Below are positions 3,679-28,899 of a stretch of 29,218 bases of DNA, in pieces. This DNA is from Chiloscyllium plagiosum. Its lineage: Eukaryota. The notes beneath the pieces are model-generated. The model ran no database searches, was not told where the DNA came from, and saw only the letters and a list, made by a program, of their open reading frames with translations. The position numbers and the translations under genes are program-made. Where the stretch lies: the NCBI RefSeq assembly GCF_004010195.1, contig NC_057752.1, positions 8,549,180-8,578,397 on the forward strand. The letters run 5' to 3'. Each line of letters opens with the position of its first letter. Position 1 is the first letter of the stretch.

Positions 3679-3897
3679 GACCAGAAATAAAATAAAGTAC
3701 TGCAGATGCTGGAAATCTGAAACAAAAGTGAAGTTGCTCAACAAACCCAGTAGGTCTGGCAGCATCTGTGGTGAGAAAGCAGAGTTAACATTTCAGGTCC
3801 AGTTCTGAAGAAGAGTTACTGGACCCGAAACGTTAACTCTGCTTTCCCCTCACAGATGCTGTCAGACCTACTGAATTTCTCCAGCAACTTCTGTTTT
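3679..3897. mobile_element. Inverted-repeat non-autonomous element (Penelope-terminus-like) carrying a hammerhead motif
   Basis: Inverted arms of about 80 bp are centred near 3810, with the direct repeat tacttcat at 3671-3678 and 3898-3905. It is the same family as 26532-26825. Confidence 0.8.
3801..3838 (+). ncRNA. Minimal hammerhead ribozyme motif
   Basis: The sequence reads agtt-CTGAAGA-a-gagttactggaccc-GAAACGTT-aact. The core boxes are present, stem I is agtt/aact, and stem II is imperfect. Confidence 0.6.
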
Positions 3898-4169
3898 TAC
3901 TTCATAAACAGACTCCAATATCCACACACAAGTGAGCAAGGTTGAACCTCACTTACTGTGTTACTGAACTTATTAACCCATTCCTGTGAAAAGGTTCATC
4001 ACATTAAAATACCAACCAAAAGCAATTTAGATGAATTGGTAACCACTGTTGCCAGAAAATCTTAAATGCTGCAAGTCTGAGAATTTTATACTGAACTTGT
4101 AACATGAACTCTTTTTCTCACTCCACAGACACTGTGAGACCCTCAGAGTTTCTCTAGCGCTTTGTTTTT

Positions 4170-5470
4170 GTTACAATATTCCAGTTATAGTCTCATTAAG
4201 ACCTTTAGCAATTGCAGAAAGACTGCTCATACTCCAAATCTTTTGTCATAAAGGCTAACACTCCATTGTTTGCCTAACTGCTTGATGTACTGATGTATTA
4301 AATTTGTACAAATCATGTCCAACAACAACCAGATCCTTCTAAATACCAATATCTCTCAGTCTTCTATCTTTTGCAAAATATTCTGTTCTTCAATTTTTCT
4401 TACCAAAGTTAACAACTTCACATTTGTATATATTACATTCCATCTGCTACACTCTTGCCCATTTACCTAACTTGCCTATTTTGTTGCAGCCGAGCTGGGA
4501 AGTGGGTTTGCTGACGGTTCATCCTCTTTCCAGTTGACATCCTCAGTGCTATGGAGCCTCCTGTGAAGTGCTGCTGTACTGCATCGGTTGGAACTTATTT
4601 GGTTTTGTTCCCACTGTTTCCGGATATTTGGTGCAGTGGTCAGTATATTGGGTCTCAATCAATGAGTTTATTGATGGGGTCCATGGATGAGTGTCATGCT
4701 TCTAGAAATTCTCTGGCTGTCCTCTGTTTGGCTTGTCCTACTATTGTTGTGTTGTCCGAGTTGATTTTGTGCTTCTTGTTGTTTGTGTGTATAGCTACTA
4801 GGGACAGCTGGTTGTGGCATTTAGTGGCTAGTTGATGTTCATGTATGTGGACTGGGACAACACAGCAATTTTAGGACAAGCCAAACAGAGGACAGCCAGA
4901 GAATTTCTAGAAGCTTGGCACTGATCCATGGACTCCATCAATAAAGACATTGACCTAGACCCAGTATACCGACCACTGCAACGAACAACCGGAACCAGCA
5001 ACTGGAAGGGCACCTGGACAGGGGACGAAATGTCTGCAAAACTGACTTCCCAGCTCAGTGAACATACCTACAACAACTGCAACCGGCACCTGAGCTACAA
5101 ATCTTCACAAAAACCTTTCTGCTTCCTTGCAGCCTCCTCACAGCTTACTTTCCCTCTATCTTCAAGTCAGCAAGAAACTTGGATATATTATATGCAGCCT
5201 CTCATCTAAGTCATTGATATTAATTGTAAATACCTTAAACCTCAGCACTGATCATTGCAGTACCACATTAGTTATAGCTGTAATTCTGAAAATGACTATT
5301 CTGTTTGTTAATGAATTGCCTCATAGTCCTAATTTTGTGTCATAACTTCTTAGTATCTTATTGAATGTTTTTTGAAAATTAAAATCACTATGTGCACTAT
5401 TTCCTTCTGATCTACTCTATTTATTATAGCCTCAATTTAGTTTAAACAGATTTATCATTTCCCTTTCATA
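4170..5470 (-). mobile_element. Old degenerate CR1 RT fragment interrupted by Penelope pieces
   Basis: 4400-4476 reads as WA..WQM.YN..KCEVV.FG on the minus strand, and the element resumes at about 5118. Confidence 0.6.
4478..5117. mobile_element. Two Penelope-like 3' fragments in inverted arrangement (minus 4478-4848, plus 4849-5117)
   Basis: The GIY-YIG C-terminal motifs (WDNT.ILGQAKQRTAREFLEAWH, SINK.IDLDP.YRPL) occur on both strands and are homologous to 28405-28899. Confidence 0.85.
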
Positions 5471-6554
5471 AATATCAAGTGTCAGTAGGGAAACATTTAG
5501 GAGACAATGATAATTGACCACAAGGTTTATGATGATGATAGAATAGGGGAATGAGCAATCCAGAGTAAGAATAATTAGTTGGGGACAGCCAACCTCAATG
5601 GGGCAACAACAGAGTTGGGCTGGATAGACTGGAACAAAAGGTTGAAACTATAGCTGAACAATGGGCTACCTTCAAAGAGGAGATGTTTCAGGTACAGTTA
5701 AAATATGTTCCCTCAAAAGGGAAAGGGAGGGCAAACAACTGTGGAGCTACTTGGATGAAAAATGAGATACAAATTAAGGAAAAAAAGTGTGCTTAATGAC
5801 AAGTATCAGGCAGAAAATAAAATTGAGAACCAAGCTGAATACAGAAGGCCCAGAAGGGAGGTGATAAAACATATTAAAGGACGAAGAGGGATTATGAGAA
5901 AAGACTGGTGGCCAAACTAAGAGGCAGTCCCAAAGTCTTCTATACGCACATAAAAGGGTGGTAAAAGGACAAAAAAAAGGAATTGACACATGGATGCTTG
6001 GGGCATTGCAGATGTTTTAAATGAATACTTTGCACCTGTTTTTACTAAGGAGTGGATACTAGGTTATGGTAGCAAAACAAAGGGCTCAAAATTGTTAAAG
6101 AGGAAGTGTTGTATACACTGTCAGTAAATACAGTTGACAAGGTAGCAGGACCAGATGAAATGAATCCAAGGATATTGAATGTAGTGAGAGTGGAAATTTC
6201 AGGAGCACTGACAATAATCTTTCCGTCTTCCCTGAGTGGCGCTAGAAGACTGGTGAATTGCAGACATTATGCTCTTGTTCAAAAAGAGAGTGTAAGGATG
6301 TGTCTAGCAATTACAGATCAGTTTAAAATCAGTATCTGGGAAGTTTCTAGAAGCAATTATTTGGGATAGAATTAATAGTCATATGGAAAAATGTGTGTTG
6401 ACTAGGAAGAACCAGCATAGATAAAGGGAAAATTGTGTTTAACTTATTTGCTGGAGTCTTTTTGAAGAGGAAACAGAAAGGGTCAATTAGGGAAATTTTG
6501 TTGATGTGGTATACATGGATTGCAGAAGGTATTTGATACATTGCCACACAACAG

Positions 6555-7247
6555 ACCACGACAAGCAGACCAAACACAGCCAGAAACCCTAACCACCTTA
6601 CCATACATCAAAGAAGTTTCAGAAATGACAGCCAGACTACTAAGACCCCTCGGAATCCTAGTAGCACACAAACCCACCAACACTCTCAAAAACTAACAAA
6701 CTTAAAAGACCCAGTACAACCCATGAACAAAACCAACGTCATGTACAAAGTTCCATGCAAAGACTGCCATAAACACTACGTAGGACAAACAGGAAGAAAG
6801 TTAGCCACCAGGATACACGAACACCAGCTAGCCACAAAAAGACACGACCCTCTCTCCCTCGTAGCCCTACACACGGATGAAAAAAACCACCATTTTGACT
6901 GGGACAACACATCTATCCTGGGACAGGCTAAGCAAAGACATGCCAGATAATTCCTAGAGGCCTGGCACTCCAACCACAACGCCATAAACAAACACATAGA
7001 TCTAGATGCCATCTATCAACTCCTCAGAAAACGAACAGGAAATGACATCACCACAAACCCCAGGAATCCCATCCAGGAGAAAGATATAAATAGAAAGCAG
7101 GAGACAACAGCTTCGCTTCACTTGGAGGTCGCCACTGATGATGTTACCTAGCCAGGTAATGAAACGTCTGGATATCAAACCTACAGCTCAGCGAGCAAAC
7201 CTACACCCTAAACCTCAACCTGAGCTACAAACCTTCACAAACCTTGC
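6555..7247 (+). mobile_element. Penelope-like element 3' part (GIY-YIG endonuclease plus terminal region)
   Basis: TLPYIKEVSEMTARLL and NVMYKVPCKDCHKHYVGQTGRKLATRIHEH match the PLE GIY-YIG motif, and a hammerhead lies in the terminal region. Confidence 0.9.
7132..7171 (+). ncRNA. Minimal hammerhead ribozyme in Penelope terminus
   Basis: The sequence reads cca-CTGATGA-t-gttacc-tagcca-ggtaat-GAAACGTC-tgg. The core is intact, stem II is 6 bp, stem I is cca/tgg, and the predicted cleavage is after GUC at 7168. Confidence 0.75.
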
Positions 7248-8643: not shown

Positions 8644-9411
8644 TCAGACCAGGCAACATCTCCTCTGCACCTTTTCCAATGCTTCCACATCCTTCCTGCA
8701 ATGGGGAGACCAGAACTGCACATAATACTCCAAGTGCGGCCGCACTAGCGTTTTGTACAGTTGCAGCATGACAGCATGGCTCGGGAACTCAATCCCTCTA
8801 CGAATGAAACCTAACACACCGTGTGCCTTCTTAACAGCACTATCAACCTGGGTGGCAACTTTCAGGGATCTATGTACATGGACACCAAGATGCCTCTGCA
8901 CATCCACACTACCAAGAATCTTTCCATTGACCCAGTATTCTGCCTTCCTGTTAAGCTTCCCAAAGTGAATTACCTCACATTTATCTGCATTGAACTCCAT
9001 TTGCCACCTTTCAGCCCAGTTCTGCAGTTTATCCAAGTGTCCCTGCAACCTGCAAATTTCTTCCACACTGTCCACCACTCCACTAACTTTATTATCATCT
9101 GCAAACTTACTGACCCATCCACTTATGCCTGCGTCCAAGTCGTTTATAAAAATGACAAACAGCAATGGTCCCAAAACAGATCCTTGTGGCACACCGCTCG
9201 TAACTGGACTCCAAGCTAAATATTTTCCATCAACCACCACTCGCTGCCTTCTTACAGAAAGCCAGTTTCTAATCCGAGCTGCTAAATCACCCTCAATCCC
9301 ATGCCTCCACATTTTCTCTAAAAGCCTACCATGTTGAACCTTATCAAAGGCTTTACTGAAGTCCATGTACACCACATCAACTGCTCTACCCTCATCCACA
9401 TTCCTGGTCAC
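8644..9411 (-). pseudogene. CR1 reverse transcriptase domain (open segment, 255 aa)
   Basis: The ORF track shows DFSKAFDKV, PQGSVLGP, FADD and WQMEFN.DKC. The flanking ORF2 is frameshifted. Confidence 0.9.
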
Positions 9412-11263
9412 CTTCTCAAAAACTTAATGAGGTTTGTCAGACATGACCTATCCTTGACAAATCCATGCTGACTATTTCCAATCCAACTGTTGCTTGCTAG
9501 ATGATTATAAATCCTATCTCTTATAATCCTTTCCAAAACTTTTCCTACAACAGACATTATCTCTACTGCCCTTCTTGAACAAGAGCGCAACATTTGCAAT
9601 CCTCCAGTCCTCTGGTACTAAACCTGTAGACAATGACGACTCAAAGATCAAGGCCAAAGGCTCAGCTATCTCCTTCCTAGCTTCCCAGAGAACTCTTGGA
9701 AAAATCCCATCTAGAATTGATAACACCTCTTCCTTACTAACCTCAATCCTTTCTAGTCTAATAGCCTGTATCTCAGTCTTCTCCTCTACAATATTCTCCT
9801 TTTCCTGAGTGAAAACAGGTGAGAAATATTTGTTTAACATCTCTCCAATCTCCACAGGGTCCACACACAACTTCCCACTTCTGTCTTTGACAGGCCCTAT
9901 TCCTACCCTAGTCATCCTTTTATTCCTCACATATCTATAGAAAGCTTTAAGGTTCTCCTTTATTCTACTTGCTAAAGACTGCTCATGTCCCCTCCTTGCT
10001 CTTTTTAACTCTCTCTTTAAATCCTTTCCAGCTACTCTGTAACTAGCCATCGCCTCATCTGAACCATCTTGCCTCAACATCACATAAGCCTCCCTCTTCT
10101 GCTAAACAAGAGATACAATTTCTTTAGTAAACCACGATTCCCTTACCTTATCACTTCCTCCCTGCCTGACAACATCTGTTCCTTAAATCAGCTCCACATT
10201 TCGATTGTCCCCATCCCCTGCAAAGCCACACCTCCCCCTCTTTTACCACCTTCCCTGATCTTAATGAAAGATCTAAACCATGGAATCTGCAACATCCATT
10301 CCTGATCTTGCTCTATCCATGTCTCAGAAATGACCACAACATCGAAGTCCCAGGTACTTAGATGCTGCAAGCTCATCTACCTTATTCCGGATTATCCTGG
10401 CATTGAAGTAGACACACTTCAAACCAGCTTGCTGTCTGCCAGCACATTCCTGTGACCATGAAATCCTGTCCATGCCCTCCCTACCCTCATCCTCTGTTGT
10501 ATTGGAACTACAACACAGGTTCCCAACCCCCTGCTGAGCTGGTTTAAACCCACCCAAATAGCACTAGCAAACATCCCACCCAAGATATTAGTACCCTCTG
10601 GTTCAAGTGAAGACCGTCCTGTTTGTAGAGGTCCCAACTTCGCCAGAATGAGCCCCAATTATCGATAAACCTGAAACCCTCCCTCCTGCACCATCCCTGT
10701 AGCCATGTGTTCAGCTGATATCTCTCTCTGTTCTTCACCTCGCTATCACATGGCACAGGTAACAAACCAGAGATAACAACTGTTTGTTCTAGCTCTCAGC
10801 TTCCACCCTAGCTCCCTGAAATCCTGCCTTACATCCCTATCCCTCTTTCTACCTATGTTGTTGGTACCTCTATGGACCACGACTTGGGGCTGGTCACCCT
10901 CTCTCTTCAGGACCCCAAAGACATGATCCGAGACAGCACAGACCCTGGCATCTTGGAGGCAACATACCAACCACGAGTCTCTTTCATTCCCAACAAACCT
11001 TCTATCTGACCCTCTCACTATTGAGATCCCAATGATTAACACTCTCCTTCTTTCCCTCCTTCCTTTCTGTGCAACAGGAATAGACTCTGTGCCAGAGACC
11101 TGCACCCCAATGCATGCCCCTGGTAAGTTGACCCCCCAAACAGTATCCAGAACGGTATACTTTTTTTTCAGGGGAACGACCACTGGAGATCCCTGCACTG
11201 ACTGTTTCTCCCCCCTTCTAACAGTTACCCAGCTTTCTTCGTGCTTAGGAGTAACTACTTTCT

Positions 11264-11594
11264 GGGCGGCACGGTGGCACAGTGGTTAGCACTGCTGCCT
11301 CACAGCGCCAGAGACCCGGGTTCAATTCCCGCCTCAGGCGACTAATTGTGTGGAATTTGCACGTTCTCCCCGTGTCTGCGTGGGTTTCCTCCGGGTGCTC
11401 CGGTTTCCTCCCACAGTCCAAAGATGTGCAGGTCAGGTGAAGTGGCCATGCTAAATTGCCCGTAGTGTTAGGTAAGGGGTAAATGTAGGGGTATTGGTGG
11501 GTTGCGCTTCGGCGGGGTGGTGTGGACTTGTTGGGCCGAAGGGCCTGTTTCCACACTGTAAGTAATCTAATCTAAAAGTAATCTAATCTAATCT
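11264..11594 (+). mobile_element. HE1-type V-SINE inserted in CR1 ORF1
   Basis: It has a tRNA head (A box tggcacagtgg, B box ggttcaattcc) and a V-domain 'tttgcacgttctccccgtgtctgcgtgggtttcctccgggtgctccggtttcctcccac'. The CR1-like tail 'gggccgaagggcctgtttcc' ends in (taatc)n. CpGs are retained, suggesting a young copy. Confidence 0.93.
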
Positions 11595-12109
11595 TTCCTG
11601 TAACTCTTATCTATCACAGACTCTGCATCCCGAATGATCAGAAGTTTATCCAGCTCCCACTCCAGTTCCCTAACGCAGTCTTGGAGGAGCAAGAGTTGGG
11701 TGCACTTCCTGCAGATGTACATGGGTGGGACACTAATGGCATCCCTCACCTCAAACATCATGCAGGAGGAACATTCCTCTCCCTGCACTGCCATCCCTGC
11801 GAGTCCCCTTATCATAAATTTAAAAAAAGAAGAGAAGCTTACCTGATGTGTCCCTGGTGTTTAACGTTAGAGGAGGGGGTTGGGTGGGAGGACCTCAGGT
11901 TTAGAAAACACTCACTTATATAGCTGAGGGGGAAAAAAAGTCCCTCCTTTCCCAGAAACCTCTGCTCTCTGAGGTGCTGCCACTGCTGATGTTCGAGGTA
12001 AGCTTTTAAAGTTTTAAGTCAGTGACTCACTTTTCCTGACAGGCCCCTGGTTCAAACTCCCGCTCTTCCTGCTGCTGGCAACTGAAAATCAGAACTGAAA
12101 TTCTGATGA

Positions 12110-12327
12110 AGTTAAAACTCACACAACATCAGGTTATAGGAAATACTAGCTTTTAGAGTGCTGCTCCTTCATTAGGTAGCTAATGAACCTTCATCACAGT
12201 TACCTGATGAAGGAGCAGTGCTTCGAAAGCTAGTGCTTCCAAATAAACCAGTTGGATGGTCACCTAGTATTGTGTGATTTTTAACTTTGTCCACCCAGTG
12301 CAACACTGGCATCTCCACATCATGGCC
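12110..12327. mobile_element. Second family of inverted-repeat non-autonomous element with hammerhead motif
   Basis: The arm at 12110-12177 is the reverse complement of parts of 12202-12285. The 11-bp direct repeat aattctgatga lies at 12099-12109 and 12328-12338. Confidence 0.8.
12201..12235 (+). ncRNA. Minimal hammerhead ribozyme motif
   Basis: The sequence reads tac-CTGATGA-a-ggagc-agt-gcttc-GAAAGCTA-gtg. The core is intact, stem II is 5 bp, and stem III is the palindrome AGCT. Confidence 0.7.
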
Positions 12328-12655
12328 AATTCTGATGATGTTCTAGCTGGCCAACAGTTTCTAGTTTACTCTCTTCTTTCTTGAATAACTAAGTTATGTT
12401 TGCTACCTACCAATCTGCAAGACTTTATCAAAATTCTGGGGAATTCAATGCTTTCCCCAAAAGCTCAGCCAATATTACAAAGTTGCAAAGGACCCCATAC
12501 TCGACTGCTCTGTGCCACACAACTGGACCTCCTTAGGAAAAAAAACAATCATAGCTTTAGCGTTAGAACTTTATGCGGCTGGAACATAATGCATCAAAGG
12601 ATATTTCTGAACTGCAGGCAACGTATAACATGATAAACCAAAATGATTATTTTAC

Positions 12656-12744
12656 CTTGCCTGACTCAAAATTTACATTGTCTTGGTTGACTCCATTTTT
12701 AGCTTCAAGATGAGTCGGAAGAGATTGTGGGGACAGCATTTGAC
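12656..12744 (-). CDS. SLC4A8: SLC4A8 coding exon (89 nt): (G)QMLSPQSLPTHLEAKNGVNQDNVNFESGK
   Basis: This frame is not in the ORF track. The acceptor is ttgttttcctcctcag|GT and the donor is AAG|gtaaaa. Phase 1 to phase 0 joins the 17268 and 1385 exons in frame. It resembles the recalled mammalian SLC4A8 segment GQTVSPQSVPTTNLEVKNGVN...DLSK. Confidence 0.92.
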
Positions 12745-13129
12745 CTGAGGAGGAAAACAAAAATGAGCAACTTGAAGAGAAAAGAATATTTGGATGTCAA
12801 GAGAAATGGAATTGGAATGAATTTTTAGCTTGCAAAATCCTAACTCAAAATTATGGCAGAATACTCTGCTTTCTTTTGACAGAGTGCTTCTTGCCACGAA
12901 TTCAAGCAGGTTTCCTCACCATATTTTACCAAACTCTTTGTGTTAATTGTCGTTTCGAGTCCTCACAGGAAAAGTCACGTCTGACTTATGCCTCATCTTA
13001 CCACGCACCTTTCCCAGAGCAACTCACTACTCATCAGTGATCCTGGAATTGATTAGCATCCCTGGTATCGGCACCATCTTTAAAAGGTCTTTGTGTACCA
13101 GACAAGCACTATCAGTCCAGAATTGTCTG

Positions 13130-15151: not shown

Positions 15152-15705
15152 CAAAGTTTGGGAGAAGATTTCAAAAGGGCCACAACACACTGCAGCACAC
15201 CAGAACTCAAAAAGAAGAAGACCAACACCTATACAAGGTATTCGCCAAAAACAGATACCCACGCAATTTCATCAACAGATGCCTAAGAGAAAGACAACGG
15301 AACGAGGACATGCCGCAACCCAAAGGACTAGCCACACTACCATACATCAGGAGCATTTCAGAACTGACAGCCAGACTACTGCGACCACTAGGACTTATAA
15401 CAGCACACAAACCAACAGCCACCCTCAGACAACAACTCACCAGAACGAAGGACCCGATACCCAGCATGAGCAAAACTAATGTAGTGTACAAAATCCCATG
15501 CAAGGACTGCACAAAACACTACATAGGACAAACAGGAAGACAGCTAACGATCCACATCCATGAACACCAACTAGCCACGAAACGACACGACCAACTATCC
15601 CCACAGAAGCGCTTCACAGGAGGCTCCCAAGCACTGAGGATGTCACCTAGACAGGGGACAAAACGTTTGCAACAAAAATTTCCAGCTCGGCGAACAGAAC
15701 CACAA
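15152..15705 (+). mobile_element. Penelope-like fragment with internal deletion, inverted 5' piece and 13-bp TSD
   Basis: It encodes NRYPRNFINRCL, TLPYIRSISELTARLL and [20 protein letters not shown]. The TSD ttactcagttcat lies at 15139-15151 and 15706-15718. Confidence 0.92.
15631..15670 (+). ncRNA. Hammerhead motif with mutated core (GAAA>AAAA)
   Basis: The sequence reads gca-CTGAGGA-t-gtcacc-tagaca-ggggac-aAAACGTT-tgc and is a paralogue of 28789-28828. Confidence 0.5.
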
Positions 15706-17267
15706 TTACTCAGTTCATTTTGATAGCAATTTCATTTGCTTTAATTTAGAATAACACTGGCTTTGAATTGGAATTCAATACATACAGTAAACAAGCCTGG
15801 ACTTTGCAGTCGGTGGCAAAGCAGAGGCATATGCCATGAACCACATGAGAAACTACTGCCCTGCGTTTGTTGTAGGCTGCAGCAGGAACCTGCTCTCCTA
15901 TTTGCAGAGTGGATCCATTGGAGAGGTGGCTGGGAAGATTAAGTGGCGTCTTCATTCCTATGAAGCAATATTCCTCTGAAATCAAGACCTGAAATGACAC
16001 TCCTTGAGGTCTTTTCTAGTTCAATAACAGGTTTCAATAATAGTTCATTTACAGTCTTTTGGTAAACACACTCACAACATACCCCAGCTCTTCTCCAACA
16101 TCAGGAGGACTGAGGAGCCTAGGTAGAGAAGAGCTACAAGAGTTCACACTCTTAGCAACCTTCAACAAATCAATGTAAATGCTGGGGGATAAAGACAGGG
16201 CAACCAAGTTTTCACACTGACAGCTCCTGGCAGCCCATCAGCCTGGGTTCCCTGGAGTTCATTCAGGCACATTGCAACTTTTTGGGTGGTGGGGGGTGGG
16301 GGGGGGGGTTCAAGCATAAGTGGACTCCCTGGATCCTGTTTGCTGTTGTAGCCCTCAGTAGCAACAAACCTCTCAGTGTTCACAACTATTGGAACTGTTA
16401 AATCCAATCCTTTATTTTTATGTCTAGGTTGAGCCAGAGCTTCACACTCCAGGTAAAATATGAAAATGACAAAAACTAGTAATACAGCTTTGAATTAAAA
16501 GTGGGAATGTCATTTACACTTGTCACCCATACATTTGTGCTTCTTACCCACTTGAAAGAGTTTCAATTTTGAAAAGTATTCACTTGTCATATTGGAGAGC
16601 CTGTCTCAAGTTATCCTACTGTCAACCAGAACAGGAGGGATATCCAGCACATAGGACCCTTTTCTTGAATCACTCACTTCATATCCACACATAAGCTTAA
16701 TTGTCAGCAAGACTAATCTCACTGCGGATGTAAATCAGAGACCCAGCCAGGCTAAGTGCTTGCTATAGCACGCCAGTAATGTGTTTTCCAGTAAACATTG
16801 TACTTCGAAATATTTTGAAAATTATCTCTGCACTTATTGTTCTTTGTCTCCATTTGTTGCTATGGTTATCACTTAGGTTTGAATGGACCTAAAAGTTAAG
16901 TTTTTTTTTCCCCCAAACAGCCTGAACTTGGCATGCCTATGGTCCATTCAGAACATTAGGGAAAAAAAACACTTTGATTTTAGGCCATTTGGGCCAAGCG
17001 AAGACCTTTTCCAAACGATCCAAACGCAGCATGCGTACAGACCTGATTGAGTCTGTTTTCGAAAAGACCTTCAGTTTTTACGTCTTTTCAGTTTTTGGAC
17101 ATGTAGATAAAAGATATCTGACCAGTATACCCTAACTCAATATTTCTTCTTTGCACTCAGCCATACCGCTTCATATATGATCATCCAGTTGTCCCCAAAC
17201 CGAGTAACAGCGAAATACTGAAGGAGAGTTTTTGTTTTTGACTTCGAGTCAGAGTCTGCGTTCTTAC

Positions 17268-17456
17268 CTGCCTTGTCCATGGAATAAGGTTCAGATTGCT
17301 TTTTCCCAACCTCAGCAAAGGACCTAACAATTGGAATGAGATTATTCCTTTTTCTCTCAATCTGATGGTGATGTCTTTTCAGAAGAGCTTCACGCACTTT
17401 CACACGAATGTTTTCATCCAGTTCCATGGAAGACTCCTGATGATCAAGGATCATAT
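17268..17456 (-). CDS. SLC4A8: SLC4A8 coding exon (189 nt): (D)MILDHQESSMELDENIRVKVREALLKRHHHQIERKRNNLIPIVRSFAEVGKKQSEPYSMDKA(G)
   Basis: The acceptor is tgtgttttag|AT and the donor is CAG|gtaaga, phase 1-1. RVKVREALLK.HHHQ and KRNNLIPIVRSFAEVGKKQS match recalled SLC4A8 sequence. Confidence 0.95.
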
Positions 17457-18489
17457 CTAAAACACAGCAATGAAAGAAAATCACAAGAACCATTATCACA
17501 GGAGCAAAGCCTTTGCAGCAGTCATGGCTGGTCAAATTATCCTTTAATCTCATTTGTTCTTTGAAACCTTCCATCAGTGATTTTGCACTTGAGTCAATAG
17601 AAGAAAAACATCTCTAACTCATTGTTGGTAAAAATATGAACTAGTATTGTATTTGTAATGCAAAATTACCATTCTAAATACAATAAATAAAACTGCAAAT
17701 GCCAGATTGGGCATTTGATTGCAGAATGTTCAGCACCGTTAGTGACTCCTCAGATACCGAAGCAGTCCCTGTCCAAATAGAGTCAAAACATGTAAAGCAC
17801 AGAAACAGACCATTTCATCCAACCTGTTCATGTTGACCAGATATCCCAAATTAATCTAGTCCCACTTGCCAGCATTTGACCCATATCTCTCTAAATCCTT
17901 CCTATTCATGGGCCCATCCAATTGTTTTTTAAATGTTATAATTGTACCAGCTTCCGCCACTTCTTCCGAGTTAAAAAGTTGCCCCCTAAGATTCCTTTTA
18001 TATCCCTTGCACCTGAAACCTCTAGTTTTGGACTACCCCACTCCAGGGAAAAGACTTTGTCCATTTATCCTATCCATGCCCCTCATGATTTTATAAACCT
18101 CTATAAGGTCACCCCTCAGCCTCCGCGCTCCAGGGAAAACAGCCCCAGCCTGTTCAGTCTCTCCCTATAGCTCTAATCCTCCAACCCTGGCAACATTCTT
18201 GTAAATCTTTTCTGAACCATTTCAAGTTTCACAACATTCTTTCGATAGGAGGGAGACCAGAATTGAACTCAGTATGTCAAAAGTGGCCTAACCAATGTCC
18301 TGTATAGCCGCAACATAACCTCCCAACTTCTAGACTGACCAATAGTGACAAGTATACCAAACGCCTTCTTCACTATCCTGTCTACCTGCGACTCCAATTT
18401 CAAAGAACTATGAACCTGTACTCCAAGGTCTCTTTGTTCAGCAACACTCCGCATGACCTTACCATTAAGTGTATAAGTCCTGGGGGATC

Positions 18490-18501
18490 CAAGATGGCGG
18501 C
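18490..18501 (+). promoter_or_regulatory. YY1-type motif CAAGATGGCGGC at the L1 5' end
   Basis: The sequence matches the YY1 consensus and lies 8 nt into the element, like the CAAGATGGC motif near the start of human L1. Confidence 0.7.
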
Positions 18502-18652
18502 GACCCAGCAAGTCTGAGTCTATAGTGCTCCTCCCAAGACTTGGGCAAAGTGGGCCACCCACCCCCACCACACTCACCAAATCATTTAAAATAGCTGTTT
18601 AATTTAATTAGTTGCTTAGTATTAAATTTAAACAATCTAATCTTTAGTAAAA

Positions 18653-19511
18653 ATGACTAAAGGGAAGGGAGCCCGCAGCTCTCAGCAAGCAGGAACCCTT
18701 CCCCCACCCTCTCCAGCTGCAACAGAGGCGTCCGCAGCCGGCCCGGGGGGACTTACCTAAAGTGGCAAGCCTTGTGGAAATCATCTCCAAACTGGATGCG
18801 AAGATCAACGCTTTTATTGAAGAATCCCGAAGCCGATGGGACTCACTCTCGGCCGCGCTGCAAAAGCACATCCGAGACATTAAGGAAATCAAGTGCCGAG
18901 TTGGAGGGGCGGAGCTAAAGGCCGCGACTTCCGAAACTACAGCGCAATCGGCCGTGGATCGGGTCCGGACTCTCGAACAGTGAGTCTAGACCTTAGAGAA
19001 TCACATTGATGACCTCGATAATCGAGGTCGTCGGAAAAATGTTCGTTTGCTGGGCCTTCCCGAACGGGAAGAGGAAGGCCAGCTTACAGCATTCCTCAAG
19101 CAGTGGCTGCCACAGCTTTTAAATCTGGAGGCTGGATCAGGCCAGGTAATTGTGGAATGGGCCTACCGGGTCTCAATACGCGGGCCCGGCTTGAACCAGG
19201 ACCCCCGCCCGGTCCTGTTCCGGCTGCAGAGCTAGAAGGAAAGGCAGATACTCCTAGAAGCCTCTAGAAATCTTGGAAAAGATTCCCAAGCCATGATCTA
19301 TAAAGGATCCAAGATCATGTTATTCCAGGACTTTTCCCCAGCTCTGGTCCGAAAGAAGAAGGCAGTCGATGAGGCAAAGAAGTGTTTAAGGGACTTAAAT
19401 ATTCAGTACTGCTTACGCTACCCAGCGACGCTACACTTTAACCATGAAGGATCCGTGTATAACTTCGGATCACCAGAAAAGGCTAAGGAATTTTTGGACT
19501 CTCTTAGATAA
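18653..19511 (+). pseudogene. L1 ORF1 (coiled coil, RRM, CTD), disrupted
   Basis: The ATG is at 18653, followed by IDDLDNRGRRKNVRLLGLPE, PRPVLFRL, IMLFQDFSPAL and LRYPATL. There is a +1 frameshift before 18762 and stops at 18981 and 19233. Confidence 0.88.
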
Positions 19512-20540
19512 ATTGTAAGAGATAATGGATGTTGGTTTGCCTTCCCCCCACTCTGGTTTATATCCCCCCCTTTTTCTTTTTTCTTACCTTACTGTCTATT
19601 ATCATCTTGGGGGGGTGGGGAGAGGGATTTATTTATTTTTTCTCTATTTAACGATTTTCTCCCCTCCTTGGGTTTTTTTTTAATTATTCTATGTATGTGT
19701 GTATGTATATATATATATATAAAAGCCGGGGAGTTTAGTTAATGTTGGTGGGGGGAGGTGGTTACCTTATTCTATTTCACCTCTGTGTCTAGGAGCGGGG
19801 TTGTTTTCCCTTGTTATTTTGTATTATTATATTTTATTATTATTTGTTGAGGTTGTAATTTTATAGTTATATATGTTTATACATGGTATTAACATTACCA
19901 AATATATCCAGGTGTTGGTGTGGGTGGGGGTAGGGTGCTCACTGTTAACTCTAGCTTTGTATTATATCTGAATTCTCCTCATCCTATTGAGGAGTGCCTG
20001 GGTCAAGGGTGGGGCATTGGTTGGGAGAGGATACAATGGACCTTTGGAAAGGATACGATGGACCTTTGGAAAGGAAGTGATACCCCCTGGGAACAAGCGG
20101 GAAAATCTCCATTTAAATATGTTTTTTTTATTATTTAGAAATAGTTTTTTATTTCACTGTTGTGAGTGTATTAGAGAGCCCTTATTTTTGTGAATTTTAT
20201 ATGCTCTATGCTCAGAATGTTCTGGATAGGGTTTCCCCTCCCGAGGGGTCTCGGATTTGCCCGGACGATTATGGTTGATCAGTTGGTTAAGTGGTGCACC
20301 TGGAATGTCAAGGGGAGTAATTCGCCAGTCAAAAGGAAGAAAATATTACCAAATCTCAAGAAAGAAAGAGTTGATATAACTCTCCTACAGGAGACACACC
20401 TGTTGGATAAAGAACACTTGAAATTACGACAGGGTGGATTTTATCAGGCCTTTTTTTCTTCTTTTAGCTCAAAAAGCAGTGGAGTTGGTTATTCTTATTT
20501 GGAAGAATTTCCCTCTCAAAATCCTAAAGCAGATAAAAGA

Positions 20541-20926
20541 NNNNNNNNNNNNNNNNNNNNNNNNNNNNNNNNNNNNNNNNNNNNNNNNNNNNNNNNNNNN
20601 NNNNNNNNNNNNNNNNNNNNNNNNNNNNNNNNNNNNNNNNNNNNNNNNNNNNNNNNNNNNNNNNNNNNNNNNNNNNNNNNNNNNNNNNNNNNNNNNNNNN
20701 NNNNNNNNNNNNNNNNNNNNNNNNNNNNNNNNNNNNNNNNNNNNNNNNNNNNNNNNNNNNNNNNNNNNNNNNNNNNNNNNNNNNNNNNNNNNNNNNNNNN
20801 NNNNNNNNNNNNNNNNNNNNNNNNNNNNNNNNNNNNNNNNNNNNNNNNNNNNNNNNNNNNNNNNNNNNNNNNNNNNNNNNNNNNNNNNNNNNNNNNNNNN
20901 NNNNNNNNNNNNNNNNNNNNNNNNNN
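20541..20926. other. Assembly gap (386 N)
   Basis: A run of N bases. Confidence 1.
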
Positions 20927-21251
20927 TCTCAGCCGGATCCCTCCAGCCCGGCACCGCCTTCCTGACCTGCAGTCTTCTTCTTGACCTCTCCGCCTCCATC
21001 CTACTCCGACCTATCACCCTCACCTTGACCTCTTTCCACCTATCACATTTCCAACTCCCCTCCTCCAAGTCCCTCCTCCCTACCTTTTATCTTAGCCTGC
21101 TGGACAAACTTTCCTCATTCCTGAAGAAGGGCTTATGCCCGAAACGTCGATTCTCCTGTTCCCTGGATGCTGCCTGACCTGCTGCGCCTTTCCAGCAACA
21201 CATTTCCAGCTCTGATCTCCAGCATCTGCAGACCTCACTTTCTCCTCAAAG
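20927..21251 (+). mobile_element. Penelope-like terminal segment inside L1 ORF2
   Basis: A pyrimidine-rich tract is followed by a hammerhead and 'gatgctgcctgacctgctg...tccagcatctgcag', the same tail layout as the 3679 and 26532 elements. L1 resumes at FDRVEW (21253). Confidence 0.75.
21119..21150 (+). ncRNA. Minimal hammerhead ribozyme motif
   Basis: The sequence reads tc-CTGAAGA-a-gggc-ttat-gccc-GAAACGTC-ga, with an intact core and a perfect 4-bp stem II. Confidence 0.72.
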
Positions 21252-24200
21252 ATTTGATAGGGTCGAATGGTCATATTTGTTTTACACATTGGAGAGGTTT
21301 GGTGTTGGACAGGTGTTTACCAAATGGGTCTCAACATTGTATAGTGATCCCAAAGCAGTTGTGGTTACCAATGGATTAGGCTCGGATAGCTTCAGTGTGG
21401 GTCGGGGCTGCCGTCAGGGATGTCCCCTCTCGCCATTGTTATTCACGCTAATAATTGAACCACTAGCAGAAGCTATACGAGCTGATCCTAATATAACGGC
21501 CCCGAGGATTGGTACAGGTAAACATAAAATTACCCTTTATGCAGATGATGTTCTTCTATTCCTCAGTAACCCTTTGATGTCCATACCTCGCTTAATCCAA
21601 GTTATTAATACATTTAGTGCATTCTCAGGCTATAAAATTAATTTTTCAAAATCGGAGGCTATGCCAATGGGTGGCCTTGCTGTGATACCCCGCTTAGCGG
21701 ACGGTTCCCTTTTTCCCTTTCGCTGGTCCCTGGAGGGTTTCTTATATTTAGGCATTTTTATTACTCCAGTATTTGGTCAGTTGTATAAGGCTAATTTTGT
21801 GTATTTATTGGAAAGGATAAGGCAGGACCTCCAGCGATGGGGGGGCCTGCCAGTTTCCTGGTTGGGTAGAATAGCATTAATCAAAATGAATATCCTGCCC
21901 CGTCTCCTATATCCTATGAGAATGCTTCCGGTGATGCTGCCGAGGACAGCTTTATGTAAATTATACGGTTGGCTGAGTTCCTTTATCTGGAACCATAGGC
22001 GGCCCCTTATTAAGCTGAAGAAGCTACAGCTTCCACAGGCAAGGGGTGGATTGGATTTCCCAGATTTTAGGAAATATCAATTAAGTTCCCTATTAAGTTA
22101 TATAGTTGATTGGGTCTTGTCTGATCCACAATCAATCTGGTTGGACATCGAGGCTTCTCAAGTAAAATACCCACTTATTAACCTTTTATTCTCAGACAAG
22201 AGGAAAATCATTACAGATCACTGTAAAAACCTTATAATACTGAATACAATCAAGGCTTGGAATATAATGCGGCAAAATGAGGGTAATTCACATAAAACAT
22301 CCCCCTATGCACCGATAGTGGGAGCATGGGGATTCCAACCGGGGTTAACAGATGCCACTTTTAAACTCTGGAGATCCAGGGGTATCTCATGTCTCGGGGA
22401 TTTATTTAAGGATGGGGTCCTGATGTCTTTCGGACAGCTGCGTCATAAATTCGGATTACCCAATGGAGACCTCTTTTGATACTTCCAAATTCGAGATTTT
22501 ATACAGAAGAAGACTACGTTATTAGTCTTTATAAATCCGATAGAGAATGTAGTGTCCTACGACCAGTGGGGGTATCTTCCGTCAGTAATATTTATCATTT
22601 ACTACATGATGAAGTATCGGGAGATATGGATAATCTGCTTAAAACATGGGTTCAGGATCTGGGACTAGAAATCTCCACAGACACGTGGAATGATATCTGG
22701 GAAAATGCTAGAAGAATTACCATCTGTAACAGAACCCAGGCTATCTAGCTGAAGATACTTCATAGGGCCCATTTAGCACCGGTTCGATTGGCAAAATTTA
22801 AGGCAGGAGCATCTCCAATGTGTCCTAAATGCAAAATAGAGGTGGGCACTCTTGTACATTGCTTATGGACCTGTCATAAGATCCGTGGATATTGGACTAA
22901 AGTAGCAAGTACCCTGATAGAAATTTTAGGAACGGAAATTAAAGTGGATCCCGTATCTCTCCTTTTGGGCTTATCGAACTTACCTTCCCTGGACATGTAC
23001 GGGAAGAGACTATTTTCTATTCTTTCTTTCTGTGCAAGGAAAAATATTTTGGTAAACTGGGTGGCTGAGGGCCCCCCTGGACTTTCAAATTGGCACAGAT
23101 TAATTATGGAATGTATTCCCCTTGACTTCCTTACAAATATGGTGCACCGAAAGACCGAATTATTTCATAAAATATGGCAGCCCTTCTTGAATTATATGAA
23201 TACAGATATTTCGGCTATCCTAACAAGGGCTTTTATTTAATTGAGATTACGAACCTGGCTGGTCCGGGGCCCCTTGGGAGAGGAATCCCACACGAATACG
23301 GGTTTTGTTACATTTGATGTTAACACATTCCGAGCATGTATCTCACTACTCAATTTCTATGTTATCCGTTGTTTTTTTGTTGTTTTTTTCTCTTTCTCTT
23401 ACTTGAATAATGTAAGAGACTTAAATATACACTCTGGTTAGTTGTAGGTTAGATTAGTAGTTAATTGAGTTTTGTTTTTTTCTTTCTCGGTTATTATATA
23501 TTTAAGATTGAATTGTATATCAATGTTTGTACTTGAGAGTTTTGTTTATTTTTGTAAACTTGTAAAAATGTTAAATTTCTAATAAAAATATCTATTAAAA
23601 AAAAAGTGTATAAGTCCTGCTCTCATATGCCTTTCCAAAATGCAGCACCTCCCATTTATCTAAATTAAACTCCATCTGCCACTCCTTAGCCCATTGGGGC
23701 CCACCTGATCAAGGTCCCGTTGTACTCAGAGGTAACCTTCTTCACTCCACTTCACCTCCAATTTTGTTGTCATCTGCAAACTTACTACCCATACCTCCCA
23801 TGTTCACATACGAACCATTTATATAAATGAGAAAAAGCAGTGGACCCAGCACTGCTCCTCCAGGCATGGTCTGACAAGTGGCAAGGAACATTCACATCAC
23901 ACAAATGGTCAGTAATGATCATCTCCAATAAGAGACAATCTAACACTGCCCCATGACATTTAACAGCATTACCATCACTGAATCCCCCACTATCAACATC
24001 CTGGGGGGGTTACCATTGACCAGAAACTCAACTGGACTCACCATATAAACACAGTGGCTATAAGAGCAGGTCAGAGACTAGGAATACAGCAGCAAATAAC
24101 TCATTTCCTGATTCCCAAAGCTTTTCCATCATCTCCAAGGCACAGGTCAGGGGTGTGATAGAATACTCTACCTGCCTGGATGGGAGAAGCTCAAACAACA

Positions 24201-26531: not shown

Positions 26532-26825
26532 CATAAACAGAAATTGCTGGAAAATCCCAGCAGGTCCGGCAACATCTGTGGAGAGAAATCAGAGTTAACG
26601 TTTCAGGTCCAGTGACTCCTCTTCAGAACAGATTCTGATTTCCCTCCACAAATGCTGCGAGATCTGCTGAGTTTTTCCAGCAATTTCTGCTTTGGTTCCA
26701 AAGAAGAGTCATTGGACCCGAAGAGTTAGCTGATTTCTCTCCACAGATGCTGCTGGACCTGCTGAGTTTTTCCATAATCTGTTTTTGTTTCTAATTTCCA
26801 GCATCCGTAGTTCTTTCAGTTTTAG
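26532..26825. mobile_element. Hammerhead-bearing non-autonomous element: one inverted and two tandem partial units
   Basis: The 11-bp TSD gattcttgaac lies at 26521-26531 and 26826-26836. Removing the insert restores the transposase reading IKQFKNHV. Confidence 0.85.
26594..26629 (-). ncRNA. Minimal hammerhead ribozyme motif (sense to the SLC4A8 pre-mRNA)
   Basis: The minus strand reads gtt-CTGAAGA-g-gagtc-actg-gacct-GAAACGTT-aac. The core is intact and stem II has one mismatch. Confidence 0.62.
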
Positions 26826-27071
26826 GATTCTTGAACTGTTTAATGATGCACATAATCAGAGTTTAAATTGTAGAAGTTGCACCCAAATTGCAGTTACAAG
26901 AGTAGGGTCTTGTTTCTTTGCAAGTAATTCTTGATCTCATCAGCTACATGGGATCTGAACATCTACTACACCAATGAGCTGTGCTCTTTGCATAGGCCAC
27001 TGAGAAGCCTTTTCTACACATTTTGGATCGACAGCTTCACTCCAACCGCACCCCTCCAACCACTCTTATGG

Positions 27072-27362
27072 TTTCTTTGTCTTTTTCTCATCCTTGTTTT
27101 TGAGAGGTGGGCCATGAACTTCCATTGGGTTGATCCATGCTAATGAGCAAGTAGTTTTCCATTGCTTTCGGCAGGATGGCTCGCAATTAAACTTTCCCCT
27201 CTTACTGCCTGCCATCAAGCTTATTAGAAGAATTTATAGCCTAATACTGAACTTGTTTGGCCAAAAACACATCTTCTATGACCATCACATACTGGAGTGG
27301 GATTCAAATCTGGAGCTTCTGACCCAGAGGTAGGGGCACCATCCATTGCACCACAAAACTTC
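27072..27362 (-). mobile_element. Old tRNA-derived SINE inserted in the pogo relic
   Basis: It has an A box-like tggtgcaatgg, a B box-like atttgaatcc and an A-rich end. It splits the transposase between VHVRDN and HKSGW. Confidence 0.6.
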
Positions 27363-27789
27363 CTCATTGTCACGGACATGCACAAAACTACCTGCAAGGA
27401 ACTTGATTTTCAACATGGATTTATATTTGGAAATTACTGCACACTTTAGTACCACCATGAAGACCATCTTCTCTTGTCCTGTAGTTTTCACTAGAACATT
27501 TGTCAAGTCTTTACACTCCACATTCAGTTGATGCACATCTTGAAATCGATTGACATTTCATCCATGTTGCCAATGTGACATCATGGACACCTGTGCTTTT
27601 GTTGCTGTTTGATGAATTGCTGGAAACTGGTAATTTTGACAGGAGTCTTTTGGTAGTTTCTGAGCAACCACCTCCTCCTGTAACAGAAGCCCTTTCTGTT
27701 CCAGAAAGCAGCTACACCAACTAGTTGTGTTGCTGATAGTTGGGAATTCAGTGATGGTAACATCATTGTGTGTCATGAGACCAGAGTTA

Positions 27790-27967
27790 GAGTGACTCTT
27801 AGAGGAGATAGTTACTACCTAGCACTTGTGGCACAGATGTTATTTTCCACTCATTATCCAAGCCTGGATGTTGTCCAGATCTCTCTGTTTGGAAAAGGAC
27901 ATGTTTAGTATCTGAGGAGTCATGAATGGTGCTGAACATTGTGCAGTCATTAGCGAACATTCCCACT
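27790..27967 (-). mobile_element. Fragment of the same old LINE family as 17700-17778
   Basis: The reverse complement 'aatgttcagcaccattcatgactcctcagatact' matches 17726-17758. Confidence 0.7.
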
Positions 27968-28404
27968 TAGAGTCATAGAGATGTACAGCATGGAAACAGA
28001 CCCTTCAGTCCAACCAGTCCATGCCGACCAGATATCCCAACCCAATCTAGTCCCACCTGCCAGCACTCGGCCCATATCCCTCCAAACCCTTCCTATTAAT
28101 ATACCCATCCAAATGCATCTTAAATGTTGCAATTGTACCAGCCTCCACCACATCCTCTGGCTGCTCATTCCATACATGTACCACCCTCTGCGTGAAAAAG
28201 TTGCCCCGTAGGCCTCTTTTATATCTTTTCCCTCTCACCCTAAACCTATGCCCTCCAGTTCTCGACTCCCAGGGAAAAGACTTTGTCTATTTATCCTATC
28301 CATGCCCTTCATAATTTTGTAAACCTCTATAAGATCACCCCTCAGCCTCCGACGCTCCAGGGAAAACAGCCCCAGCCTGTTCAGCCTCTCCCTATAGCTC
28401 CCTA

Positions 28405-28899
28405 TAGTGTACAAAATACCATGCAAGGACTGCACAAAACACTATATAGGACAAACAGGAAGACAGCTAACAATCCGCATACATGAACATCAACTAGCCA
28501 CGAAACGACACGACCAGCTATCCTTAGTAGCCACACACGCAGACAACAAGCAACATGAATTCGACTGGGACAACACTACTCTCATAGGGCAAGCCAGACA
28601 GAGAACAGCCAGGGAATTCCTAGAGGCATGGCATTCATCCACAAACTCCATCAACAAACACATCGACCTGGACCCAATATACCAACCACTACAGCGGACA
28701 GCTGAAACTGACAACCGGAAGCGGCAGGGACAGACCACTTTAAACACCGGAGGAAACATCAAAGAAGCGCTTCGCAGGAGGCTCCCAAGCACTGATGATG
28801 TCGCCGAACCAGGGGACGAAACGTTTGCAACAAAAACTTCCAGCTCGGCGAACAGAACCACAACAATGAGCACCCAAGCTACAAATCTTCGCACAAACT
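28405..28899 (+). mobile_element. Penelope-like GIY-YIG plus terminal fragment
   Basis: It encodes [28 protein letters not shown]...AREFLEAWHS...IDLDPIY, in an open frame. Confidence 0.92.
28789..28828 (+). ncRNA. Minimal hammerhead ribozyme in Penelope terminus
   Basis: The sequence reads gca-CTGATGA-t-gtcgcc-gaacca-ggggac-GAAACGTT-tgc, with stem I gca/tgc. Confidence 0.7.

Follow-up and report, generated by a model that had tools for sequence, protein, structure and literature searches.

The hammerhead motifs of the window (the whole stretch of 29,218 nucleotides analysed, from the shark Chiloscyllium plagiosum) are almost certainly known minimal type I hammerheads carried in the pLTRs of five lineages of Penelope-like elements (PLE), and left in introns as truncated end-fragments that are inert for the host. 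Taken as a whole, the account developed below, PLE end-fragments copied from an uncut and capped template, is very probably the best explanation. The motif itself is already known and the window's copies are in all likelihood inert; what is of value is the genome population, where about 220,000 cores allow a test of the idea that cleavage makes the ends of the template. The function of PLE hammerheads is still called unclear in the portion of PMC8557442 available to us.

Hammerhead cores and Penelope-like lineages

The exact core pattern, CTGANGA-(stem II)-GAAA(CG or GC)T, matches six times in the window, at 3805, 7135, 12204, 21121 and 28792 on the plus strand and at 26598-26626 on the minus strand. 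These are the six positions given in an earlier note made from the sequence alone, and 300 dinucleotide shuffles of the window gave a mean of 0.05 cores and a maximum of 1. A genome-wide pattern search put the cores far above the reversed-pattern control, with 169,659 against 2,030 for the ACGT type and 54,202 against 341 for the AGCT type, the total of about 220,000 being for a pattern without stem requirement. Core density in the window is about three times the average (6 in 29 kb compared to 69 in the 1.12 Mb sampled). All six cores lie in introns of a SLC4A8-like (bicarbonate-transporter) gene on the minus strand, exons of which were placed with approximate ends at 17263..17463, 12641..12745 and 1227..1388 (residues 136-202, 201-235 and 230-283 of P0002, respectively). 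An Rfam search of the window returned five matches, with E up to 5 and no hammerhead family among them; the inverted pairs here mimic microRNA precursors in such scans.

The earlier note had proposed PLE minimal hammerheads, of several lineages, in the introns of one gene, and all three parts were borne out. In longer copies of A, C, D and E the hammerhead is preceded by a GIY-YIG reading frame, and a tail of 85-130 nt is found 3' of each motif; the hammerhead is located in the pLTR in these four families (in C through one locus). Assigned by linker motif and not by an RT tree, D and E would be Poseidon-type, A and C Neptune-type, and B probably Neptune-type. The Poseidon signature of D and E comes from P0122, in which RT and GIY-YIG share one frame that ends at the hammerhead (RVT_1 E 3e-6; GIY-YIG motif by eye; no Zn-finger linker). 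The window fragments are 61-92% identical to it, the D and E copies holding only the 3' part of the ORF. Family E is present at 6553..7246 (+) as a frameshifted thumb/GIY-YIG remnant, 61-63% identical to P0122, with hammerhead and tail. Family D is present at 15208..15704 (+; 92% identical, with an internal deletion near 15601) and at 28404..28902 (+), where a GIY-YIG remnant 86% identical to P0122 is followed by hammerhead and tail. Another Poseidon-type 3' fragment with a GIY-YIG remnant, at 4489..4858 (-), has its inverted partner arm at 4850..5117 (+).

The Neptune-type CX2-5CxxC linker upstream of GIY-YIG reads CNRRRCNTC in L094/L095 (family A) and CHGRCCKTC in L237 (family C); long family-A copies combine a CxxRCxxC linker with GIY-YIG, and family C does likewise at that one locus. 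In the window, the family A pLTR fragment (20928..21247, +) is inserted in an L1-like ORF2 and has its 5' end in an N gap. The family C element (12202-12324, +) starts 2 nt upstream of the core and faces an inverted arm at 12109..12177 (-). Family B is linked to PLE only by the similarity of its tail to that of A (71% over 84 nt), and neither a coding frame nor the CX2-5CxxC linker was seen for it. It forms a head-to-head inverted insertion at 3694..3901 (arms 3724-3803 and 3818-3897, 84% complementary) and a copy at 26536..26631 (-), followed at 26634..26816 (+) by an inverted arm (26634-26701) together with another copy, now decayed (about 26697-26816). No RT was recovered for families A, B and C. 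The seven long-frame candidates yielded no full-length element with a pLTR on either side; all contain N gaps of 1.4-3.2 kb, six of them being mostly gaps and the seventh partly.

Structure of the hammerheads

The six exact cores have the type I arrangement CUGANGA ... GAAA ... UH, and in all of them stem III is the loop-less 4-nt palindrome described in the earlier note, ACGT in five and AGCT in one. Cuts are predicted after 3834, 7168, 12232, 21148 and 28825 (+) and 26597 (-), with H17 being U, C, A, C, U and U, respectively. The family B hammerheads are located at 3801..3838 (+; core 3805-3833, stem I agtt/aact) and 26594-26629 (-). Family E has its hammerhead at 7132..7171 (+), with stem I cca/tgg, stem II gttacc/ggtaat, an ATG formed by A9-U-G10.1 at 7141, and a TAG in loop II. 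The family C hammerhead, at 12201..12235 (+), is the one with AGCT. That of family A (21117..21152, +; core 21121-21147) has stem II gggc/gccc, and that of family D (28789..28828, +) has stem I gca/tgc and its A9-U-G10.1 ATG at 28798.

Several features had escaped the first reading. A single unpaired base separates A9 from stem II in six of six cores. Stem II is damaged in both family B cores, 3805 and 26626, whose hammerhead folds reach -0.8 and -0.1 kcal/mol. Stem I of 21121 (attc/gatt) has only 2 bp and then a U-U mismatch. Head-to-head inverted pairs contain 3805, 12204 and 26626. The pair G10.1-C11.1 is present in four window cores, with G-U in 7135 and 26626, and is G-C in 28 of 33 Poseidon copies.

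All the stem pairs listed in the earlier note are present. At 12204, however, two of them, tac/gtg and ggagc/gcttc, depart from the forms seen more often, cac/gtg and ggagc/gctcc, and are therefore probably wobble decay and not covariation. The note's broader claim, that pairing is kept across families, fits what is seen in the 33 of 37 Poseidon-group copies that passed the filter (4 removed): pair 3 of stem I is G-C in 15, T-A in 11 and C-G in 5, a compensatory change through three Watson-Crick states that counts as about two lineage events, not 31. The decayed copies were likewise found, at 15634 (+; within the first family D fragment, G12 lost), at 12148-12175 (-; G5 and G12 lost), at about 5011-5050 (no CTGANGA box, only the 3' strand of stem II and the GAAA box remaining) and at about 26700 (+); a further one lies at 4514-4546 (-).

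A lone monomer cannot close stem III. In a dimer, ACGU or AGCU would self-pair between two copies to form stem III, with the strands of stem I swapped, as literature and structure suggest. Such a dimer fold, which is nested, can be scored, yet the minimum-energy prediction is a different fold, and under isolated folding the dimer comes out less stable than a pair of misfolded monomers at nine of nine sites. In two cases the core is predicted to be taken up in pairing with its own inverted arms (mean pairing to outside 0.96 and 0.89). According to Frangieh et al. (PMC11167929), cleavage by the Anolis PLE hammerhead requires addition of the element's protein. Dimer cleavage would fit the structure and the literature, and the motif of the parent element is likely to be a weak self-cutter that needs a second copy, and probably the element protein, to fold.

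5' ends of the copies

The ends of family A were analysed on 137 arms kept of 149 in 1.12 Mb. Of these, 31 reach upstream of the core and 106 stop; the latter include 55 with their end at -9..0 and 5 that end at the cut site (+27..+30). The ends are spread over -9..0 and not fixed on one base, and 65 of the 106 are inverted junctions. A hand count over the first 100 listed of each family gave 66 family-A and about 50 family-C sites where native sequence is lost within 15 nt of the core, compared to 3 of the first 100 listed in family D (Poseidon), the other 97 running through the hammerhead. The 3' ends of copies are found at +76..+129, with two 3' ends in family A.

The Neptune-type junctions have G in excess. 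In family A, G-ATTC-core occurs 4,608 times against 2,805 for A and T together, 4.7-fold over base composition; in family C, G-ACAACCAC-core occurs 998 times against 124 with A (11-fold). A control by position left the G without significance when inverted junctions were counted (7/14 against 18/51, p 0.36), and gave 5/6 against 6/30 (p 0.006) without them, in a small set and with a filter chosen afterwards. Since the G sits inside the target-site duplication in three family-A copies, it may be genomic. TATA-like boxes are present at -35 in family A (21 of 42 upstream sequences) and at -40 in family C (8 of 19), that is 31-32 nt upstream of the predicted start positions -4 (A) and -8 (C). The putative core promoter of family A in the window (21086..21120, +) has the TATA-like TTTATCT at 21086 and an initiator-like TCATTC with predicted +1 at 21117, a position (= -4) where 120 loose ends of RNA reads fall. 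Family D has TATAAA at -53 in 30 of 45 sequences and no pile-up behind it, none of 20 loci stopping before -91 (inversions can inflate these extents). For L1 and SVA, the part of PMC3287187 that we consulted traces an untemplated 5' G to copying of the cap.

Together, the Neptune-type pile-up, its G and TATA spacing, and the lack of a Poseidon pile-up suggest run-off copying of capped, uncut transcripts. A TATA/initiator promoter in the pLTR of families A and C, probably also of B, would give rise to a capped RNA with its start 4-8 nt upstream of the core. Priming of reverse transcription would take place inside the tail, as in vitro for the Anolis element, and cDNA synthesis would either run off the capped, uncut 5' end, copying the cap as the extra G, or fold back to give the inverted arm. 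We favour this promoter start and capped run-off for the Neptune-type families with some reserve; under it the transcript start, and not the ribozyme cut, would set most 5' ends, and the end pattern predicts exact transcript starts at -4 (A) and -8 (C).

It is conceivable, if rather unlikely, that no transcript starts there and that RT stalls or folds back at stem I or at a TTC-CT-GAA micro-hairpin, the G arising by terminal C addition. The inverted junctions, 65 of 106 ends, could be made by fold-back alone, the ends are scattered across ten positions, and the family A G at -5 would lengthen stem I by one pair; palindromic PLE inverted junctions are interpreted as self-priming in the sections of PMC3846280 at hand. 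Yet the same hammerhead fold is run through in 97 of the first 100 listed family D sites, and the G-marked position of family C, -8, falls outside its 3-bp stem I. The base at -6 is mixed in the listed family-A sites, which rules out a templated fold-back extension, and the TATA-like spacing fits in two unrelated pLTRs.

Choice of target site is an improbable source of the pattern. In this reading an endonuclease cutting near (G)ATT would let the cDNA anneal by microhomology at the element's ATT just upstream of the core. The Anolis enzyme favours 5'-ATT-3' (PMC11167929), and the duplications of the three family-A copies include the G and part of ATTC. However, the G excess is stronger in family C, before ACAA and without ATT; microhomology alone would not halt most cDNAs in one 10-nt window, and a cap-derived C annealing to a target G would yield identical duplications.

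That self-cleavage sets the ends of the mobilised RNA, copies being made from cut monomers or circles, has been proposed for PLEs (PMC4209133) and retrozymes, and seems equally doubtful here. The core is retained across lineages, and a re-ligated circle would show no end at the cut site. Against this, just 5 of 106 ends lie at the cut, the 3' ends lie away from it, and the RNA reads have no pile-up of begins or ends (a weak point, as the library was not made for ends). Among 66 sampled cores, a neighbour of the same strand and type within 1 kb was never seen, in a gapped assembly that hides tandems, and hammerhead mutants leave insertion in vitro unchanged (PMC11167929). With ends upstream of the core, behind a TATA-like box and with a cap-like G, cleavage therefore mostly does not seem to make template ends, and the end positions support, from within a genome, what was seen in vitro, namely that the substrate is uncut RNA.

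With capped run-off, the leader lost through a cut would be capped and about 32-36 nt long; that the cut acts as an off-switch or processing step, unneeded for insertion, is a tentative suggestion. The chances seem about even that the Neptune hammerhead is the first structure of the capped RNA, that "strong-stop-like" cDNAs of 90-130 nt entered the genome in hundreds of thousands, and that the dimer-dependent ribozyme is a concentration-sensitive decapping switch on the mRNA of the element itself and not an end-maker. If so, the genome would record start site and cap at single-base resolution.

Intronic copies and comparison with known systems

As the host gene is on the minus strand, five of the six exact cores are antisense to its pre-mRNA; the only one in sense is the family B copy at 26626. 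In each of the three sense copies, either stem II is broken or catalytic bases are missing, and cleavage by the intronic copies, or a role for them in the gene, is unsupported. Of 89 family-A copies, 17% have a changed G12 and 21-29% a changed C/G of the palindrome, as at other CpG sites, and the insertions appear to decay at a neutral rate. Non-CpG core positions vary slightly less than the tail (3.5% against 6.0%, p 0.003), which minor tail subfamily variants and alignment bias can explain, selection being the alternative. Because lineages keep the core and change their stems together while family-A insertions seem to decay neutrally, selection would have acted on the parent elements. It is very improbable that the intronic copies are domesticated ribozymes or hairpins regulating SLC4A8 pre-mRNA: the threefold core density, the presence of family A repeats in RNA from both strands and the long double-stranded hairpins that inverted pairs would form in the pre-mRNA are set against the antisense or damaged state of the copies, their mixed orientation over the mapped gene span (A 7+/4-, C 1+/4-, D/E 7+/4-), the free decay of catalytic CpG bases in family A, and a genome-wide rate of one core per 16 kb, at which intronic copies are expected.

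Minimal hammerheads of PLEs (min-HHR) were described in 2014 in pLTRs of metazoans (Cervera and de la Pena, PMC4209133); in the literature on them we found no description for a shark. The parts of the sources that we consulted report them from fish Xena, Poseidon and Neptune elements (PMC4209133; Lunse et al. 2016 via PMC6765202), and describe traits shared by the shark motifs: type I, no helix III loop, a palindromic 15.2-16.2, one base left unpaired between 9 and 10.1, a stem II that opens with G10.1, a large number of families in each genome, and mainly solo copies with some opposite-strand pairs. Stem I has 2-4 bp in the shark families compared to 4-5 bp in those of Schistosoma (PMC4209133). 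The counts, about 220,000 cores against about 4,000 in coelacanth and 9,000 in Xenopus (PMC4209133), are not like for like because the shark pattern asks for no stems.

According to the portions of Craig et al. 2021 (PMC8557442) and Arkhipova et al. 2013 (PMC3846280) available to us, a Zn-finger-like linker preceding GIY-YIG, as here, is found in Neptune-clade PLEs, and PLE insertions share the heavy 5' truncation, the adjacent inverted truncated copy and an optional tail of 30-40 nt, to which the two 3' ends of family A correspond. Unlike that general truncation, the shark Neptune-type stops are non-random, 0-9 nt upstream of the core and with an extra G; such a pile-up was not found in those portions. 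As in full-length L1 and SVA (same part of PMC3287187), the G excess lies right before a predicted RNA polymerase II start at the 5' junction, but here it marks end-fragments of 90-130 nt and a start site that is predicted, not mapped. Animal non-LTR retrozymes (Li, Clavereau and Pollet 2026, 10.64898/2026.07.22.740005) are likewise short and non-coding, derive from PLEs and carry a type I hammerhead. They are tandem repeats by definition, whereas the shark copies occur singly or head-to-head and show target-site duplications and staggered ends; the lack of same-strand neighbours among the 66 cores rules against a retrozyme identity.

The closest comparison for the Poseidon-type families is PAc, the Poseidon of Anolis carolinensis (Frangieh et al. 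2024, PMC11167929). In D, E and F, as in PAc, the ORF start coincides with the start of stem II (A9-U-G10.1). The stop codon of the upstream ORF lies in loop II here, unlike in PAc, and no intact shark copy was recovered. The cut would fall 28 nt downstream of the ORF start, compared to 26 in PAc, and the open ORF-like tail ends about 100-105 nt after the ATG, compared to 111-118.

Hammerhead cores in the window and in the genome

The presence of hammerhead cores was analyzed with the exact pattern CTGANGA-N-stem II-GAAA(CG or GC)T. Six cores were identified in the window, at 3805, 7135, 12204, 21121 and 28792 on the forward strand and at 26598-26626 on the reverse strand, compared to an average of 0.05 and a maximum of one in 300 shuffled sequences; the minimal hammerheads described in the earlier note are real and were correctly recognised. 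Stem III of the cores is a bare palindrome (A15.1-C-G-U16.1 or A-G-C-U), and a single unpaired base separates A9 from stem II in all six. Decayed copies are found at 15634, 12148-12175 (-), 4514-4546 (-), about 5011-5050 and about 26700. Every core and decayed copy of the earlier inventory was recovered; the 4514-4546 copy and the unpaired base after A9 were missing from it. These motifs belong to an already described class.

In the 3.56 Gb genome, two core patterns gave 169,659 and 54,202 matches against 2,030 and 341 for the reversed controls, and the single exact motif of family A (core at 21121) has 37,605 matches. An unselected sample of 1.12 Mb contains 69 cores, i.e. one per 16 kb; core density in the window is thus roughly threefold the average, though not exceptional. 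Further small variants absent from the window, e.g. a 13-nt stem II region with AGCT, were observed at two loci elsewhere (L032 and L035) and in one copy of the C35 sample; the lineages of the genome thus exceed the five of the window.

The Rfam scan of the window returned no hammerhead family. Its matches to MIR2118 (52.6 bits for a gathering score of 85) and mir-7094 were rejected, being hairpins of inverted pairs and not microRNAs. The first concerns an inverted pair of family B at 3725-3895, which resembles plant MIR2118 with an E-value of 1e-7, under the gathering score. Such pairs mimic microRNA precursors without being any, and are possible sources of double-stranded RNA.

Carrier elements, covariation and decay

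The hammerheads are associated with Penelope-like elements (PLE). Those of families D (28792, 15634, 4546, 5020) and E (7135) are located downstream of GIY-YIG remnants that share 61-92% identity with P0122, a shark protein carrying RT and GIY-YIG in a single frame that terminates at the hammerhead, and are assigned for this reason to the Penelope/Poseidon type. Pfam at an E-value of 0.01 missed the short GIY-YIG remnants, and gave weak matches at 1. Families A and C (12204) are of the Neptune type, since a CxxRCxxC linker and GIY-YIG lie upstream, in longer copies for A and, for C, in locus L237, linked via a shared non-coding stretch. Family B (3805, 26626, 26700) is old and has its tail in common with family A; no coding partner was found for it in the loci examined. 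No intact element was recovered, because the candidates contained N gaps: their long "open frames", considered as full-length PLE, were discarded on this ground.

In Poseidon-type copies the stop codon of the upstream frame falls within loop II, and A9-U-G10.1 reads ATG in 30 of 33 Poseidon-group copies, starting a tail frame with shared motifs; the Anolis Poseidon element likewise has an ATG at this position opening a tail frame. The Poseidon-type hammerhead is coded three ways, with the last ORF codons across the core, the stop TAG in loop II and the next ATG at A9-U-G10.1 (window 28789-28907; L073 and L076). The window copy at 28789-28907 has lost the stop, and its frame continues to 28907.

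The earlier note had claimed that stem sequences change while pairing is kept. Stem I pair 3 agrees with this in the Poseidon group: among 33 of 37 copies, it is G-C in 15, T-A in 11 and C-G in 5, the filter that dropped the other four also fixing the 3' bases of pairs 1 and 2. These three paired states correspond to roughly two compensatory changes separating lineages. In family A (89 copies), the invariant core positions are free of subfamily differences, which fall in N7, loop II, stem I and the tail; the decay of the catalytic G12 and of the palindrome runs at 17-29%, as for CpG sites. Non-CpG core sites are less variable than tail sites (3.5% vs 6.0%), which argues against strict neutrality, although this contrast may be due to subfamily variants and alignment bias. 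From the sequences, we read these patterns as probable selection on the parent elements rather than on their insertions. In one family-A subfamily (L099-L122) stem I pairs perfectly over 4 bp (attc/gaat), where the subfamily of the window copy (21117-21152) has a U-U mismatch.

PLE fragments of one family occur within, or joined to, the terminal repeat (pLTR) of another: a Poseidon fragment inside the Neptune-type C, and a C piece ending D tails (L237; C35 sample, 149.3-150.4 kb). An L1-like element at 18657-23240 (+) comprises ORF1-like frames (18657-19508), an endonuclease (Exo_endo_phos, 20175-20540), an RT (RVT_1, 21178-22479) and a C-terminal part to 23240; a family-A fragment breaks its ORF2 right after an N gap (20541-20927). 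A second non-LTR retrotransposon remnant, with upstream frames and an RVT_1 match (E 3e-22), lies at 8644-11860 (-) and is presumably CR1/L2-like.

Ends of the copies and the start-site reading

Ends of family-A copies were anchored on the tail alone; of 149 matches, six resembling family B and six adjacent to N were set aside. Of the 137 remaining arms, 31 continue upstream, 65 terminate at an inversion and 41 have a plain end. Among these 106 ends, 55 lie at -9 to 0 from the core start and 5 at the cut site (+27 to +30). Some ends at -12 to -4 proved to be partly upstream sequence of other subfamilies and were reclassified as extending; D/E ends at -2 coincide with other Poseidon subfamilies having different upstream sequence. 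A 3' splice site was ruled out for the end at -4, the native sequence being CCTC-ATTC, with no AG. A repeat of at least 8 nt is present on both sides in 14 of 21 plain copies keeping the core start, most, but not all, positioned like a target-site duplication.

Family-A copies end most often at the A of TCATTC, 31 nt downstream of TTTATCT. In family C, TATAAAT precedes the A at -8 by 32 nt, and family B has TCAGTT at the position equivalent to that of family A. We take these motifs to resemble the TATA and initiator consensus. Genome-wide, G precedes the family-A position 4.7-fold over base composition (4,608 vs 2,805 for A+T) and the family-C position 11-fold (998 vs 124 for A). The position control for this G excess was not significant with inversions included, and significant without them (5/6 vs 6/30). 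A G-ATTC subfamily was ruled out, the base preceding it being mixed.

The pLTR promoter would start a capped RNA just upstream of the hammerhead; internal priming would then give short run-off cDNAs off uncut RNA, or fold-back inverted arms. The ribozyme would cut rarely, and a cut would strip the capped leader. PMC11167929 reports that priming occurs inside the tail, that protein assists cleavage and that insertion does not need it, and PMC3287187 attributes an extra G to copying of the cap. We give this start-site and cap reading of the 5' ends an even chance. Stalling of the reverse transcriptase followed by terminal addition is a weaker candidate: by hand count of the first 100 matches listed for each family, with patterns that skip copies with C at -15, native sequence is lost within 15 nt of the core in 66 copies of A and about 50 of C vs 3 of D, so the hammerhead fold as such does not account for the pile-up. 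Microhomology at the target site is unlikely as the source of the ends. Templates defined by cleavage, given the 5 ends at the cut site, appear just as improbable.

The dimer action proposed in the earlier note stems from published work, which reports a dimer requirement and a low activity for PLE minimal hammerheads. In isolated folding, the double hammerhead is predicted to be nested yet less stable than misfolded monomers at 9 of 9 sites, and no same-strand partner lies within 1 kb of any of 66 sampled cores. Neither a shark description of such motifs nor a PLE start-site or cap signature was found in the openly accessible main texts searched; the supplements of PMC4209133 and of preprint 10.64898/2026.07.22.740005, which sampled one chondrichthyan, may list shark motifs. 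As the window motifs are of a known class, the weight rests on the start-site and cap reading, which is testable.

Intronic copies and RNA reads

One exon of the window matches Pfam Band_3_cyto, its closest database protein being a bamboo-shark SLC4A8-like exchanger (96%), which makes the host a shark. Three exons of the window, all on the reverse strand, were located by mapping this SLC4A8-like protein. Every motif is intronic, and 5 of the 6 exact cores lie antisense to the pre-mRNA. Copies in sense orientation are damaged, with stem II broken (26626) or core bases lost (12175, 4546). Head-to-head inverted pairs contain three cores; in predicted folds, partner arms bury the cores at 12204 and 26626, and the flanks of the 3805 core pair into a long hairpin, with a local misfold of the core. 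The motifs are most likely inert in the SLC4A8-like gene, and domestication by the host is very improbable as an account of them. A short SLC4A8-like isoform, P0001, uses an alternative last exon that falls just outside the window, 681-923 bases ahead of its first position (G000:C43, reverse strand).

Of two sequencing runs, X22 yielded 0 reads, and the single-cell poly-A RNA run X21, of which about 2% was read, gave 2,420 reads on both strands; 91% continue into other sequence and 120 have loose ends at 21117. No pile-up of read beginnings or ends was observed at the cut site, in a library type that is blind to transcript ends and so tests neither cleavage nor starts. Read-through of dispersed copies is the most likely origin of these reads. 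A-to-G differences in them are strand-skewed at 21135 (152/532 vs 43/384) and 21215 (207/799 vs 20/302), which could reflect either strong expression of a small number of copies or RNA editing.
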